DNA of 62,593 nt from an uncultured Candidatus Saccharibacteria bacterium (GCA_964543265.1 CAZIWN010000003.1:1-62593); one strand, 5' to 3'; counted from the first letter of the stretch, positions 2,287-33,033 are shown. Program-made: numbers and translations. The notes: a model not told the origin generated them from the sequence alone.

Positions 2287-2850
2287 ATGATAGAACACGA
2301 AGATATTTTAATAGAGGGAGCTTCGAAAGGAAGCCAATCAGACTTTGCTAAGTTATATGATGCATATATAGAACAAATCTATAGATTCGCATATTTTAAG
2401 CTTAGTAATAAAAAAGATGCTGAAGATTTGGCCCACGATGTTTTTTTAACTGCGTGGCAGAATATGCCAAATTTCATATCTATGGGCCACCCCTTTTCAA
2501 GCTGGCTATATAAAATAACTAAAAATAAAATAATAGATCGCTGGAGAGGAAAGAAAAACAATATCAGCACAGAGACGATGAAAGAAAACGGTCAAGAAAT
2601 AGAGTTTTCTTCTAATTTAGTTGAAAAACTAAATACTGATATGACTTCTGAGGTGGCAATTTCTGCAGTGAAAAAGCTGGACCACATAAAACAAGAGGTT
2701 ATGTTTTTGAAGTATGTTTCCGAAATGGATACTAAGGAAATTGCGAAGGTGATCGGAAAGACAGAAGGGGCAACAAGGGTGATATTGCATAGAGCCATAC
2801 AAGAAGTTAAAACAAATTTAAATGAACAATATGGAGGAAATCTTGTCTAA
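2287..2850 (+). CDS. ECF-type RNA polymerase sigma-70 family factor
   Basis: Region 2-like DLAHDVFLTAW..SWLYKITKNKIIDRWR and region 4 HTH EIAKVIGKTEGATRVILHRA. Confidence 0.8.
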   Translation: MIEHEDILIEGASKGSQSDFAKLYDAYIEQIYRFAYFKLSNKKDAEDLAHDVFLTAWQNMPNFISMGHPFSSWLYKITKNKIIDRWRGKKNNISTETMKENGQEIEFSSNLVEKLNTDMTSEVAISAVKKLDHIKQEVMFLKYVSEMDTKEIAKVIGKTEGATRVILHRAIQEVKTNLNEQYGGNLV

Positions 2851-3205
2851 AAAGTTAAAACAAGGAACATATCAAGAAATTGATAAGAATTTCACAGACG
2901 TTTCGAAGCGCCTGATTTTTGCTTCTTCTCAAATCAAGAGATTTTCTCTAAAAGAATATTTTACGGAGCATAGACTATCGTTATCTTTTTCGTTTGCAGC
3001 TGCCCTATTAACATTGGGTCTTTTGCAGGGAATAAATTATTTTAGAAATGACAATTCGCTTGCTATGTCTAAAAACGCACAAGCCACAAAGTCTGAGGAT
3101 TTAAATCTAGATATTAAACTAAAAGAGATACAATATTTTTCCGACTCAAGAGATGAGGTGGCGGTACTTTTGAAAGAAATTAAAGATTTTGATTCTAGGC
3201 AATAA
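2822..3205 (+). CDS. Putative membrane anti-sigma factor (single-pass)
   Basis: Overlaps the sigma gene's 3' end. Has a central TM segment LSLSFSFAAALLTLGLLQGI. No recognisable domain; the call is positional. Confidence 0.4.
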   Translation: MNNMEEILSKKLKQGTYQEIDKNFTDVSKRLIFASSQIKRFSLKEYFTEHRLSLSFSFAAALLTLGLLQGINYFRNDNSLAMSKNAQATKSEDLNLDIKLKEIQYFSDSRDEVAVLLKEIKDFDSRQ

Positions 3206-12464: not shown

Positions 12465-12505
12465 AGACAGCAGAAACTCAAACAAAACAAAGAAGGGGGT
12501 GTCGC

Positions 12506-13084
12506 GTGAACATTTATGTGGTTCTTGGCAGTGTCTTGGGAGCGTTGCTTTATTTGCCCTTGTGCTATCAGATTCTGCAGAGGAAAACGACGCAGAATTT
12601 GTGGACGTGGGTGATGTGGGGTATCCTGGACGCGATCGCGCTTCTATCTGTCATATTCCAAGGTGGAAACTATCTCTTATTGGCGGTGTATGTGCTCGGG
12701 AGCACTGCGACTTCTATTGCGATCATCAAGTCTGGAGCCAAGTCTAGCTGGGGCAGATTTGAAACAGTGATTGCACTTCTGGCAGTCGCATGCATGGTCG
12801 TCTGGAGCTTTTCCGGGGCTAAGGTTGCGACTATCGCCAGCACGCTTGCCATAGTCATAGCTGCGCTTCCGCAGATGAAAGATGCCTGGAAGCGACCGCA
12901 CGAGAATCCATGTCTCGTGTATGTCGGCTATACGTTCGCCAATCTTTTTTCCGCAATTGGCGGGAAAGATTGGTCGGTGGAAGAGCGTTTCTATCCGGCA
13001 TCGTGCACCGTTCTCTGTTTAGTAATAACAATACTGATCGCTCGCAAGTTCTGGCTACTAAAGCCAGCTCTAGTGGTCGATTGA
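12506..13084 (+). CDS. GC-rich 6-7-TM membrane protein with two PQ-loop-like motifs
   Basis: 192 aa with a GTG start. LPLCYQILQRK after TM1 and ALPQMKDAWKRP after a later TM. The coding body is visibly much more GC-rich than its flanks. Confidence 0.6.
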   Translation: MNIYVVLGSVLGALLYLPLCYQILQRKTTQNLWTWVMWGILDAIALLSVIFQGGNYLLLAVYVLGSTATSIAIIKSGAKSSWGRFETVIALLAVACMVVWSFSGAKVATIASTLAIVIAALPQMKDAWKRPHENPCLVYVGYTFANLFSAIGGKDWSVEERFYPASCTVLCLVITILIARKFWLLKPALVVD

Positions 13085-13110
13085 TTCCCGCAGATGTACG
13101 CATCGGCGGA

Positions 13111-13150
13111 AAAAGGGGGCAGGTGGTCGAGAAGACTACCCAGCCCCTTT
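13111..13150. terminator. Bidirectional terminator (cassette 1 / ileS)
   Basis: AAAAGGGGGC...GCCCCTTT stem followed by CTTTTTTTTT, between convergent genes. Confidence 0.7.
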
Positions 13151-18892: not shown

Positions 18893-19714
18893 TTAGCTAC
18901 AAGAAAATTTTGCTTGAGGAAAATTTTTAAGCCTGACTTCGTATCTAACTGGAACATATTTGTTTCTCATGTTTTCTGGTATAAAAACTATAACCATTTC
19001 GTTTTTAATTTTTAAACTTAACAAAAAGACCATAATTTCTTCACATAAATTAATGAGATTTTCCCAACAAATTTCTAGGATTTCTTTAATTCCCTGCCCT
19101 TTATGCGTTGGAAAGATTGTTTTTAATTTATCTCCTTCTAAGATATATTTTAATTCTGATAGTTTAAATCCTTCGTGTTCAATTTCTGCACGAGTTTTAT
19201 TAAAAATAATAAACCAATTTTTTTGATGATCTTTTATCATGCTTGATAAGGCAATAAATCTTTTATCATCGCCTTTTAGGGTAAATCTTTTTAATCCTTT
19301 TTCATATTTTTTAGCATCATCGTCAAACAAAAAACCGATATTTGATCCCATAAATCTAGAATGACGTATTAAGCAATTAATTGCTATCTTTCCACGAATA
19401 AAAAAGTCTTTAAAATGCATATTAATATTGTCATCAATTGGATTTTTTATATCTATCTGACTTCCATTACGGATTCCGTCCTTGCCCTCATCGATATCTT
19501 TCAAGTGGTTAGATATTAAATTTTCCAAACTTTCTTTTGCGTATTTGGTTTCTAATAGATTTTGGAAAATCGCTTCATAACTTTTATCATATGCTAGTCT
19601 TTCATTCCTCGGATAAGCACAATCTCTTATTTGGCACATTTGCATAATAAATCTATTAAAAAAGCCCTCCTTGTCATTCATTGTATAAGAATGCCTTAAA
19701 ATACTTAGTTCCAT
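18893..19714 (-). CDS. Hypothetical protein (orphan, between smpB and ssrA)
   Basis: 273-aa AT-rich ORF. I recognise no motif. Confidence 0.5.
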   Translation of the reverse strand: MELSILRHSYTMNDKEGFFNRFIMQMCQIRDCAYPRNERLAYDKSYEAIFQNLLETKYAKESLENLISNHLKDIDEGKDGIRNGSQIDIKNPIDDNINMHFKDFFIRGKIAINCLIRHSRFMGSNIGFLFDDDAKKYEKGLKRFTLKGDDKRFIALSSMIKDHQKNWFIIFNKTRAEIEHEGFKLSELKYILEGDKLKTIFPTHKGQGIKEILEICWENLINLCEEIMVFLLSLKIKNEMVIVFIPENMRNKYVPVRYEVRLKNFPQAKFSCS

Positions 19715-19791
19715 ATTATGATTATATGATACTTATTCACGTAAATATACAAATAAACCACCTAGAAATTGGAGTGGTTTATTTGTATTTG

Positions 19792-20139
19792 TGGAAATGG
19801 CGGGAGTTGAACCCGCGTGCAAAAGTTAAATTATTTCCGCGTCTACAAGCTTAGTAGTTGGCTTCTTGCGAAGCTAAAACGATATAGAAAATTTTAATTT
19901 TTAATCCCGATTCGAAAATTTTCTGGAAAATTCGTCGGGACGATCTCTATATATAACACCGGAGAATCCCCTATGGAGAATCGAGGTCCGATGACACCAG
20001 GTTAAGCTAAAGCGAAAGCTGGCATTCTGCTAACTGAATTGTTGGCAGTAATTGTTTGCCTGAATTGATTTGCGAGTACTCTGGCGAAACTCGGCTTGCA
20101 ACGGAAATTATCTAATTTAAGCCAAAGCCTGTCATTCCC
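19792..20139 (-). ncRNA. ssrA: tmRNA (SsrA)
   Basis: 5' GGGAATG pairs with 3' CATTTCC-A, including the G3:U70 wobble. T-arm GCGGG-TTCAACT-CCCGC. Internal tag frame reads ...GCC AAC AAT TCA GTT AGC AGA ATG CCA GCT TTC GCT TTA GCT TAA (ANNSVSRMPAFALA*). Adjacent to smpB. Confidence 0.85.
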
Positions 20140-20147
20140 GTAGCTGT

Positions 20148-20176
20148 ATTATATCAGAATCGAGTTTATTTGACAA
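20148..20176 (-). promoter_or_regulatory. ssrA promoter
   Basis: On the minus strand: TTGTCA, 17 nt, TATAAT, then 8 nt to the mature 5' G. Confidence 0.6.
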
Positions 20177-20198
20177 GAGCTGGAAAAACCTTTAAAAT
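20170..20198 (+). promoter_or_regulatory. Consensus sigma-70 promoter of GC-rich cassette 2
   Basis: TTGACA, 17-nt spacer, TAAAAT. SD AAGGAG lies 11 nt before the ATG at 20245. The -35 overlaps the ssrA -35 on the other strand. Confidence 0.6.
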
Positions 20199-20244
20199 AG
20201 TCTCTAGTACCTAGTTTCTTGGGAATTAAGGAGATCTTTCCCAG

Positions 20245-20457
20245 ATGGATTGCCAGACTTTCAGGGCGTTGGCGAGCAGGGATCCGGGTAAGGGTGGTCT
20301 CGAGCCCGACACGGCGGCGAAGTTCGCCAGGCATGCGGTGAAGTGCGGTGAATGCTCCATTTTTCTGGTCACGAGGACGAAGATGGGCGAACAGGGCAAT
20401 GCGCGCCTAGTTGCCGATCTGGTGGAGAAAGAAAAGGAGGATATCGCGAGAAACTGA
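20245..20457 (+). CDS. GC-rich mini-protein with ZAS-like motif (HxxxCxxC), paralog 1
   Basis: 70 aa: MDCQTFRAL...HAVKCGEC. SD AAGGAG upstream. Confidence 0.6.
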   Translation: MDCQTFRALASRDPGKGGLEPDTAAKFARHAVKCGECSIFLVTRTKMGEQGNARLVADLVEKEKEDIARN

Positions 20458-20487
20458 AACGGAGCAAAAATCAGGAGGAGTGATTCG

Positions 20488-20730
20488 ATGCTCAAGAAGA
20501 GGAGGAGGATGACCTGTCAGGAATTCCGAGAGGCGTTTTCAAAAGAAGGGAGCGAAGCGGGACACGAAGACGGATTCGAGGCGAGAATGGCAGAGCAACT
20601 CGCACACGTCAGAAGATGCAAGAAGGGATGTTTCGAATTCATGAACAGAAACTCCCCTACCAAGCCCAAGAGGGCGAAGCATGGAAGCGGGAGTTGGTGG
20701 TTCATCAACCCACAATTGGCCTTTACGTGA
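20488..20730 (+). CDS. GC-rich mini-protein with ZAS-like motif, paralog 2
   Basis: 80 aa: ...MTCQEFREAF...HVRRCKKGC. SD AGGAGG upstream. The terminator's 5' arm lies inside its 3' end. Confidence 0.6.
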   Translation: MLKKRRRMTCQEFREAFSKEGSEAGHEDGFEARMAEQLAHVRRCKKGCFEFMNRNSPTKPKRAKHGSGSWWFINPQLAFT

Positions 20731-20755
20731 GGCCAAGTGTGGGTTGTTTTTTTAT
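20706..20755 (+). terminator. Intrinsic terminator after paralog 2
   Basis: 16-bp stem CAACCCACAATTGGCC / GGCCAAGTGTGGGTTG (one mismatch) followed by TTTTTTTATTTT. Confidence 0.75.
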
Positions 20756-20842
20756 TTTAATTTGCTTTTTTAATATTTCGAAAACATAATTATTTAGTCT
20801 CCCGGTTTCGAAAGACCTGCTGGATTCATGGAGGGGCGAACC

Positions 20843-20986
20843 ATGATGACCTGCGAAGCTTTCAAAATCCTTTCAAGGAGAAAAGATCTCGGAAGAACAG
20901 CGTCGCTTCACACCCTCCAAGAGATGGTGAAGCACGCCATAAAGTGCAAGGGATGCACCAGAAGGGACTTGAAACAGAAGAAATGA
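20843..20986 (+). CDS. GC-rich mini-protein with ZAS-like motif, paralog 3 (below the ORF-track cut-off)
   Basis: 47 aa: MMTCEAFKIL...HAIKCKGC. SD GGAGGGG lies 5 nt upstream. An alternative in-frame ATG at 20828 gives 52 aa. Confidence 0.55.
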   Translation: MMTCEAFKILSRRKDLGRTASLHTLQEMVKHAIKCKGCTRRDLKQKK

Positions 20987-21001
20987 TGAATGAACAGCTC
21001 T

Positions 21002-21044
21002 AGACCTCGATCCTGCCAAAGGCGTTTCGAGGTCTTATATTTTA
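21002..21044 (+). terminator. Intrinsic terminator after paralog 3
   Basis: AGACCTCGA / TCGAGGTCT stem, 16-nt loop, then TATATTTTA. Confidence 0.6.
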
Positions 21045-23280: not shown

Positions 23281-23364
23281 TTATCCTTTCTTAATTAAAA
23301 CGCTTAATTAATATGCTTTAATAATAACAGATATTTATCATTTTAGGAAGCCCTCACATTTTTT

Positions 23365-23399
23365 ATAAAAAAAGAAGACCGCCAGCGAAGGAGGTCTTC
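23365..23399 (-). terminator. Intrinsic terminator of GC-rich cassette 3
   Basis: On the minus strand: GAAGACC-12 nt-GGTCTTC followed by TTTTTTTAT. Confidence 0.65.
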
Positions 23400-23418
23400 C
23401 TTCTGCGGCGGTCGGCGA

Positions 23419-23637
23419 TTACGAGTAGATGATCTGCTCTCCTCTGGGTCCGACTGTGAACACCTCCGCAACGAAGCCTGGCCCAGAACCTTGGCAGGAA
23501 ATCCGCGAGGAACCTACGTCGAATCCAGCTCTGGACATCGAGCTCCTGAGATCGCTCTCGGAACCCGAACCTTCCACGATTTCCCGCAGAAGAAGTCTTG
23601 CCTCTTCTGCGGTCAGGTCGCGAAATGCCTTGGGCAT
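23419..23637 (-). CDS. GC-rich 72-aa protein of unknown function
   Basis: MPKAFRDLTAEEARLLLREIVEGSGS.... Strong G-at-codon-position-1 bias in this frame, with its own promoter, SD-like AAAGGA and terminator. Confidence 0.55.
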   Translation of the reverse strand: MPKAFRDLTAEEARLLLREIVEGSGSESDLRSSMSRAGFDVGSSRISCQGSGPGFVAEVFTVGPRGEQIIYS

Positions 23638-23684
23638 AACTTATCCTTTTTTTGCCTAGGATTCAATCCTCGTCAATCTTTACT

Positions 23685-32465: not shown

Positions 32466-32493
32466 ATAAATAACTATAAGTGAAAATTTCTTT

Positions 32494-32537
32494 AAAATAA
32501 AATCACCCTCGCCAACCTTGCGGTTAAACGAGAGTGA
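32494..32537 (-). terminator. Intrinsic terminator of GC-rich cassette 4
   Basis: On the minus strand: TCACTCTCG-17 nt-CGAGGGTGA (with a G:U wobble only in the minus-strand RNA), then TTTTATTTT. Confidence 0.6.
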
Positions 32538-32554
32538 ATTGAGTCAGCGACCAA

Positions 32555-32923
32555 TCAGGCCGCGACTACCACCCCCTGACCACCCCTGCACATCTGGAAC
32601 GCCGAGCAATCTGCGCATGCAGGCTTGGGGACTGCCCCCACGTCTTCTCGGCACACCCTCTGAAGTGCAATTTCCGAGAAGTCTCCTTCAACGTCGCTCG
32701 CGCACCCATCGTGAGGATCAAAGACCCCAACGACAGGGACCTTGTCTCCGTCTTCCGTGATGGGTGCAGTCTCGGACCCATCTTCTCCATAGACGACTTC
32801 GAGATCCAGGCAGACCGGCAGCCGAAGAGCATCATCTCGACGAGAGAGATGCCTTCCTCTGCCAACACCCCTCAACTGATTCATGAACTCTTCGTCATCT
32901 CTCAGCTGTCCCACACTGGCCAT
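32555..32923 (-). CDS. GC-rich acidic 122-aa protein with a C-terminal Cys cluster
   Basis: MASVGQLRDDEEF...CADCSAFQMCRGGQG. Strong G1 codon bias. SD-like AAGGCGGAG lies 9 nt before the ATG; the ORF-track version starts at GTG 32956. Confidence 0.5.
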   Translation of the reverse strand: MASVGQLRDDEEFMNQLRGVGRGRHLSRRDDALRLPVCLDLEVVYGEDGSETAPITEDGDKVPVVGVFDPHDGCASDVEGDFSEIALQRVCREDVGAVPKPACADCSAFQMCRGGQGVVVAA

Positions 32924-33003
32924 GGCCCCAAATCTCCGCCTTCTTTCCCTAGGCACCGGACAATTGCCCGCGACCCCATATCGCAGGCCAAGTACTGATT
33001 TAT

Positions 33004-33033
33004 ATTATATACCCTATTTTGAAATTAATGCAA
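33004..33033 (-). promoter_or_regulatory. Candidate sigma-70 promoter of GC-rich cassette 4
   Basis: On the minus strand: TTGCAT, 18-nt spacer, TATAAT, immediately after the ruvA stop. Confidence 0.45.

Follow-up and report, generated by a model that had tools for sequence, protein, structure and literature searches.

The stretch of DNA analysed here, referred to as the window, spans 62.6 kb (62,593 nucleotides, 34% GC) and comes from an uncultured Candidatus Saccharibacteria bacterium (GCA_964543265.1, CAZIWN010000003.1:1-62593). Between ssrA, the gene for transfer-messenger RNA (tmRNA), and infC it carries a small islet encoding three very short proteins whose cysteine and histidine residues recall those of zinc-binding anti-sigma (ZAS) domains. 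The genes in this region are ordered argS (minus strand), smpB (plus), a 273-aa orphan open reading frame (ORF, minus), ssrA (minus), the islet and infC-rpmI-rplT (plus). The tmRNA gene was located by ARAGORN and by Rfam (RF00023, 117 bits) at 19791-20139 on the minus strand, with its 5' end (20139) towards the islet. The three tandem paralogous ORFs of 70, 80 and 47 aa announced in a preliminary description of this DNA are present at 20245-20986, all on the plus strand, each led by a Shine-Dalgarno (SD) motif 6-11 nt before its start codon. The first, w1 (20245-20457, 70 aa; SD AAGGAG at 20228-20233), has its candidate ligands at C3/H30/C34/C37 and a C-terminal 'LVADLV' segment, and is called type 1. 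The second, w2 (20488-20730, 80 aa; SD AGGAGG at 20473-20478), carries C10/H40/C44/C48 behind a basic N-terminal extension, MLKKRRR. The third and smallest, w3 (20843-20986, 47 aa; SD GGAGGGG at 20830-20836), carries C4/H31/C35/C38 and has an alternative longer frame of 52 aa starting at 20828.

Each islet protein begins with an N-terminal Cys-x2-F-[RK] and continues with a downstream H-x3-C-x2(3)-C. The motif text given earlier (MDCQTFR...HAVKCGEC, MTCQEFR...HVRRCKKGC and MTCEAFK...HAIKCKGC) was recovered as written, with M, C, F, H, C and C aligning in all three. Using the regular expression C-x2-hydrophobic-[RKQ]-x12-45-H-x3-C-x2-3-C for a chance test in all six frames, matches in the window were confined to the w1, w2 and w3 sites. 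In 100 dinucleotide-shuffled versions of the window there was no match, and shuffles of the islet gave a mean of 0.0005, that is, one match in 2000. The occurrence of the motif is far beyond chance. The islet proteins had also been described as lacking a transmembrane (TM) segment, and none could be seen in the sequences by eye, to which no TM predictor was applied.

Further members were obtained from public contigs and genomes, which are designated by L-numbers. The closest public relative of the window is L003, a Candidatus Paceibacterota metagenome-assembled genome from deep Lake Baikal, with a translation initiation factor IF-3 94% identical to that of the window. The window islet has no blastn similarity to the ssrA-infC gap of L003, which nevertheless holds three SD-led small ORFs, MNCDQFK...HAAECEGC, ..TFCVMFR...HAEKCEDC and MNCEMFR...HARSCAQC (TTG start). 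A HMMER search with a profile of the three paralogs against 1.84 billion representative proteins returned a single match, P0002 (E 1.8e-12). This protein, also called h1, is a w1 ortholog, 63% identical, encoded on the 599-bp groundwater contig L021, which contains the tmRNA 5' end, the same promoter, h1 and the beginning of another member, MNCAEFK...HVLECDSC. The fourth genome, L022-L024 (IF-3 69% identical), has its tmRNA (Rfam, 121 bits) followed by two members ahead of infC. The L022 tmRNA (909-1242, minus) went unreported by ARAGORN, and its tag region may be atypical.

The three related Paceibacterota genomes thus add seven members, and the family numbers ten in four genomes: w1-w3 in the window, b1-b3 in L003, h1-h2 in L021 and k1-k2 in L022. 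The preliminary description had called for the Cys and His positions to be checked in homologues, and all four (Cys, His, Cys, Cys) are invariant in 10/10 members; the residue three after the first Cys is F in 9/10. The form H-x3-C-x2-C is found in 10/10, with w2 showing a C-x3-C variant (CKKGC). The Cys-to-His spacing is 27 in w1 and w3, 26 in h1, 22-23 in b1, b3, h2 and k1, and 30-35 in w2, k2 and b2, while type-1 members share the C-terminal [LV]-V-A-D-L segment. An SD site precedes every member. For w1 and h1, the only clear ortholog pair, dN/dS (the ratio of nonsynonymous to synonymous divergence) is 0.31-0.32 and the sense frame is free of stops. The comparative evidence is decisive: w1-w3 are real protein-coding genes, accepted as such because SD sites and the invariant Cys/His/Cys/Cys set recur in all ten members despite unalignable DNA.

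The family is lineage-restricted and unannotated. Public gene calls on two contigs with 100% and 99.95% identical DNA place no gene between the 273-aa ORF and infC and so miss w1-w3, and in L022 the public annotation calls a 120-aa antisense ORF over k1 (1322-1684, minus). A word-indexed search of 5.8 billion proteins with the three paralogs gave no match, and one with six sequences found only L003's own b1; in all, protein databases of 1.8-5.8 billion sequences contain two members. A metagenome scan with a pattern running from the tmRNA T-arm to its 5' end recovered no relatives, its eight matches being unrelated tmRNA or tRNA loci. In more distant Paceibacterota (L004, L008 and L025-L032, IF-3 54-63% identical), an IF-3-guided look-up found neither mini-ZAS genes nor, beside infC, the divergent ssrA-infC arrangement. 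Among viral contigs no homologue was found with w1 as the single protein query.

The islet also carries a set of transcription signals. A promoter scan placed the ssrA promoter at 20148-20176 on the minus strand (TTGTCA-17-TATAAT with a TG extension, 11/12 matches) and P1, a near-consensus sigma70-like promoter of the w1-w2 operon, at 20170-20198 on the plus strand (TTGACA-17-TAAAAT, 11/12 matches). The two stand back-to-back with overlapping -35 boxes. The promoter core ATTTGACAAG and the ssrA -10 box are invariant across the window, L003, L021 and L022. The P1 -35 box is likewise invariant, and in the three relatives A/T-rich -10-like hexamers lie 17 nt downstream of it, as judged by eye. 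The w1-w2 operon ends in an intrinsic terminator at 20706-20753 (plus), with a 17-bp stem, a 7-nt loop, a T7 run and an inverted repeat that is 94% complementary; the hairpin is found in both minimum free energy and centroid folds. A 22-nt stretch that covers its 3' arm and T-run (20735-20756) is 95% identical in L003. The stem overlaps the last w2 codons, and the w2 tail is predicted to be disordered from about residue 58.

A candidate promoter of w3, P3 (20762-20790, plus; TTGCTT-17-CATAAT), was read from the sequence and falls below the threshold of the promoter tool. It is followed by a conserved 5' untranslated region, CGGTTTCGAA. The P3 region is conserved with the sequence upstream of k2 in L022, and the w3 start codon aligns with that of k2. 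The w3 terminator (21002-21043, plus), recognised by folding, consists of the stem AGACCTCG...CGAGGTCT and a U-rich tail, and its flank is conserved in L003. In L022, a 20-bp inverted repeat, ccccgtagtagaatttgcca / tggcaaatttcactacgggg, lies at about 1625-1690 between the k1 terminator and the k2 promoter and has no counterpart in the window. Judging from these sequence signals, strong promoters would drive transcription of the islet genes. The proposal of two transcription units holds at the level of such signals, since the anatomy of promoters, SD motifs and terminators fits: P1 and a terminator frame w1-w2, and w3 has its own SD motif, its own terminator and a candidate promoter.

Genomic islands integrate at the 3' end of ssrA, and the islet had been taken for an acquired module integrated at this gene. 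It lies instead on the 5', promoter side of ssrA, away from the 3' attachment end. The islet adjoins the ssrA 5' end in 3/3 relatives, whose tmRNA is 78-96% identical to that of the window, and in the sister-genome check it occupied the same ssrA-infC slot in both relatives whose contigs reach infC; the flanking genes in the window, L003 and L022 are ssrA, smpB, argS, infC, rpmI and rplT. No integrase was found in the window, and a repeat search around ssrA revealed no att repeat or duplicate of the tmRNA 3' end. The ssrA-island reading was rejected on account of this 5'-side position, the invariant shared promoter, the synteny, the lack of att sites and integrase, and the location of the variable element on the 3' side. 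That element is the 273-aa orphan ORF (18893-19714, minus; 28% GC, no Pfam family) between smpB and the ssrA 3' end. It is absent from L003, where smpB adjoins ssrA, and is the actual variable insert at the ssrA 3' site, for which no att repeat was found. A different insert occupies that site in L029, where ssrA lies on the smpB strand (2729-2914, plus), the opposite orientation to that in the window, and is followed on its 3' side by a 61-aa AbrB/SpoVT-like ORF and a 239-aa ORF. L003 in turn has, between argS and smpB, a 211-aa Cys-rich ORF (2255-2890, minus) with a hydrophobic N-terminus, probably secreted, that is absent from the window.

The claim that the islet is GC-rich stood: the three genes have 47-58% GC and the islet reaches 52-62%, against 34% for the window. 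Across all four genomes, the mini-genes have a GC content at third codon positions (GC3) of 0.47-0.73, compared with 0.23-0.39 in neighbouring host genes. The flanks of the islet in the window and L003 are 87-96% identical, and the flanking genes have a dS of 0.6-1.2 and a dN of 0.02-0.04, while the two islets are 52% identical, a value equal to that of shuffled sequence. Because identity is at the shuffled level, the locus has drifted near-neutrally or turned over outside ligands, promoters and terminators. A w1 ortholog is kept in the more distant L021 and not in L003, and the b3 promoter of L003 resembles that of w1, which suggests birth-and-death evolution and rearrangement at the islet. 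Under AT-biased mutation, high GC3 would be expected to disappear by near-neutral drift, yet it persists.

Other GC-rich islands occur in the window, and no nucleotide similarity was found among them. The NUDIX-PolX spacer contains, at 23351-23675, a 59% GC island with a terminator-like hairpin and a 72-aa ORF (23419-23637, minus). L003 lacks this island, its spacer measuring about 100 bp, and neither Rfam nor Pfam matches it; hhalign ruled out the 72-aa ORF as a family member. Between ruvA and a Mur-ligase-like gene, a 550-bp island (32476-33025) with GC reaching 61% contains a 133-aa ORF (minus); with no Rfam match at E up to 1 and no Pfam match, it may be a small gene or an RNA. A third island (12501-13150, GC up to 56%) overlies a multi-TM ORF of 192 aa, for which a weak match to DUF6962 is the only one. 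Compositionally atypical genes are thus recurrent in this genome.

The ZAS likeness of the family was examined by profile and structure comparisons. The family profile aligned in register with an alignment of three solved ZAS domains by hhalign (probability 52%, P 1.5e-4). Individually, also in register, it gave P values of 7.8e-3 for RsiW, 1.3e-4 for DdvA and 7.8e-4 for RslA, compared with about 0.6 for two unrelated controls. Among family models, zf-HC2 (PF13490) weakly matched w1 only (1/10 members, 12.5 bits, E 0.17), and the NCBIfam anti-sigma family NF052368 weakly matched 2/10, with a best E of 0.016. AlphaFold2 models were built from five-sequence alignments. Helices were predicted in w1 at residues 3-12, 21-33 and 35-67, with a break at Cys34, and in w2 at 10-19, 30-43 and 45-55, with a break at Cys44 and pLDDT (the model's per-residue confidence) below 50 from residue 58. 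The predicted topology, three helices with a break at the first Cys of C-x2-C, fits that described for the class I anti-sigma domain (ASDI). In type-1 members the models suggest a low-confidence linker followed by a conserved '[LV]VADL' helix at the C-terminus that recalls helix 4 of ASDI.

Several results weigh against a ZAS assignment. The zf-HC2 gathering threshold of 22.2 bits was reached by 0/10 members, and nine had no match to the model at all. When Cys and His were masked, the hhalign P rose from 1.5e-4 to 0.15 and the signal was lost, so that the likeness is confined to the motif and may reflect convergence as well as homology. The 'YxDGEL' / 'L..Y.DGEL' signature of helices 1 and 2 typical of zf-HC2 is absent from the family alignment, and the Cys-to-His spacing ranges over 22-35 residues among members. 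Searching PDB sequences with the profile yielded no anti-sigma protein, and the exhaustive hmmsearch of the 1.84e9 representatives yielded no ZAS protein besides its one family member. Foldseek against PDB (two models) and BFVD gave no match with E <1. The AlphaFold2 models are of moderate confidence (pLDDT 63-69) and were read for their secondary structure. PHROGs and PADLOC returned nothing meaningful. Of the ZAS/zf-HC2 signature proposed in the preliminary description, the ligand motif, its invariance and the ligand spacing of w1 stand, while zf-HC2 scores stay below threshold, Foldseek gives nothing significant and the hhalign signal goes no further than the motif.

In ZAS domains such as the helical bundle of RsiW, HxxxCxxC sits at the junction of helices 2 and 3. 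The Zn ligands of Bacillus subtilis RsiW (PDB 5WUQ), a ZAS protein of the Cys-His-Cys-Cys (CHCC) type, are C3, H30, C34 and C37 (PMC5358783). The numbering C3/H30/C34/C37 in w1 is identical, the N-terminal M-x-C start is the same, and HxxxCxxC falls in hhalign register. Outside the ligands there is no significant sequence similarity between RsiW and the mini-proteins. RsiW is a 208-aa membrane protein encoded beside sigW and regulated by proteolysis, whereas the mini-proteins have 47-80 aa, are soluble and tandem, and have no sigma gene nearby. The ligands are C4/H30/C34/C37 in MseR (NMB2145) of Neisseria meningitidis and C11/H37/C41/C44 in RsrA of Streptomyces coelicolor, and orthologues of this type are sometimes unannotated (PMC2893595). 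The w1 numbering nearly equals that of MseR, and the Cys-to-His spacing is 27 in RsiW and 26 in MseR and RsrA. In ZAS domains the fourth ligand, a Cys or His in helix 1, stands about 25-27 residues ahead of the His. MseR and RsrA share with the mini-proteins a small size, solubility, an N-terminal Cys with H-x3-C-x2-C, and conservation concentrated around the ligands. Those two are single-copy, adjacent to or co-transcribed with an extracytoplasmic function (ECF) sigma gene (rpoE, sigR) and recognised by zf-HC2 or anti-sigma domain (ASD) models, whereas the mini-ZAS family is orphan, multi-copy and below the Pfam cut-off.

An ASDI is made up of a three-helix bundle, then a linker and helix 4, and Zn motifs are enriched among the soluble ones (PMC7406223). 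In type-1 members the predicted H1-H2-H3 arrangement, the low-confidence linker and the conserved C-terminal helix appear to mirror this layout. The shorter w3, b3 and k2 (47-54 aa) end after helix 3 and would therefore carry the sigma4-binding module only. The definition of ASDIs rests on their genomic association with ECF sigmas, which the mini-ZAS family lacks. Among short anti-sigma factors outside the ASDI class, the class II proteins CnrY/NepR and the AsiA-type phage binders of sigma region 4 are also very small helical proteins that bind sigma domains, some of them encoded at a distance from the sigma gene. These proteins lack a Zn site and are unrelated in sequence, and the parallel with the mini-ZAS family is one of analogy only.

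The genomic context of sigma factors likewise counts against an anti-sigma role. ASD genes almost always adjoin their ECF sigma gene (PMC2893595, citing Campbell 2007), and no sigma gene is adjacent to the islet in any of the four genomes, in agreement with what had been described for the window. The only sigma gene in the window is ECF-type (2287-2850, plus; Sigma70_r2 and r4) and lies 17 kb from the islet. It is followed by an overlapping 127-aa ORF (2822-3205, plus), presumably its own anti-sigma factor, for which one TM segment is predicted and which contains no Cys/His motif; the earlier remark that this partner lacks the motif was borne out. The ORF was ruled out as a family member by hhalign.

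Taken together, motif, predicted fold and locus lead us tentatively, at somewhat less than an even chance, to regard the mini-proteins as an orphan, tandem, miniature ZAS-like family of Zn-binding three-helix proteins that probably bind a partner encoded elsewhere, with a sigma factor as the leading candidate. Zinc binding, the identity of the partner and redox switching are what we infer. These small soluble proteins of 47-80 aa would most likely bind one Zn2+, with the N-terminal Cys of helix 1 and the H-x3-C-x2-C where helices 2 and 3 meet as its ligands. The Zn-locked three-helix bundle would then bind its partner, most likely sigma factor domain 4, and the type-1 C-terminal helix of w1 and its relatives ([LV]-V-A-D-L) could bind sigma2 as helix 4 does. 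The partner would be set free when the thiols are oxidised or zinc is lost. The main rival, which we judge unlikely though deserving of attention, is that these are genuine Zn-, metal- or redox-active mini-proteins that are not anti-sigma factors, with a convergent CHCC site and a different partner, such as the RNA polymerase (RNAP) core or, given the tight coupling to ssrA, a component of the ribosome or of trans-translation; a metal-handling role is a further candidate. A similarity to ZAS domains that is limited to the motif, the missing sigma neighbour, a promoter region held in common with ssrA and conserved in four genomes, hypervariable sequence beyond the ligands and the want of detectable relatives of the family among 1.84e9 proteins would all suit such proteins. 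Yet the order and spacing of the four ligands and the helix boundaries closely match ZAS domains, three solved ZAS domains align with the family in register, and no other known family in Pfam, NCBIfam, PHROGs or PADLOC matches better.

Two further explanations concern the nature and origin of the islet itself. That the ORFs are spurious, the islet being a structured non-coding RNA or regulatory region or an antisense ORF being the true gene, is very improbable. GC-rich segments in AT-rich genomes are frequently RNA genes, and the islet folds with z-scores of -2.7 and -2.2; these are modest, however, and mostly contributed by the terminators, and Rfam searched over the islet at E up to 10 gave no family and only chance snoRNA-type matches. 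Long antisense ORFs are present, the one called as a gene in L022 among them, and a dN/dS of 0.32 is likewise obtained for an antisense frame whose wobble positions coincide with those of the sense frame. The sense strand is purine-rich, and antisense frames are therefore stop-poor by chance. An antisense ORF as the real gene was rejected, as it is not conserved between genomes (blastp E >0.1) and is interrupted in L021, whereas the sense ORFs keep SD and the invariant ligands in 10/10 members although the DNA is unalignable. Improbable too, if less so, is a foreign module of phage, plasmid or host-derived origin, encoding for example sigma-hijacking or effector proteins and acquired horizontally, perhaps repeatedly. 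Such an origin would account for the raised GC3, for coding parts that do not align between the window and L003 inside well-conserved flanks, for a copy number and order that vary between genomes, and for the further GC-rich orphan islands, one of which (23351-23675) is missing from L003. Against it, the islet occupies the same slot next to the same ssrA promoter in four genomes, on the 5' rather than the 3' side, with no integrase, att repeats or mobile-element genes. Relatives are lacking in viral contigs (w1 query only), BFVD and PHROGs, no GC-rich donor homologues occur among 1.84e9 proteins, and near-neutral drift alone explains the unalignable islet DNA, given the dS of the flanks.

The reading of the family as ZAS-like regulators can be extended further. 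It is conceivable, and as a joint proposal improbable, that these are previously unseen, orphan, fast-turnover Zn-switch regulators in a reduced genome of the Candidate Phyla Radiation (CPR), acting not on a dedicated ECF sigma but on the primary sigma factor, RNAP or trans-translation. Mutually exclusive back-to-back promoters would couple their expression mechanically to that of ssrA, and selection would keep their coding sequence GC-rich, for instance by way of a dual-function structured mRNA or of gene conversion between paralogs. The locus provides an example of gene callers missing small genes of atypical composition, or placing them on the wrong strand, and of a conserved family that protein databases with billions of entries almost entirely lack, found in a CPR bacterium whose regulatory repertoire is very small. 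Anti-sigma domains have been catalogued almost wholly via adjacency to ECF sigma genes, so that orphan, very short versions are invisible to gene callers and family models. If sigma binding is true, the minimal functional Zn anti-sigma module could be as small as 47 aa, and CPR bacteria would use redox- or zinc-gated control of transcription.

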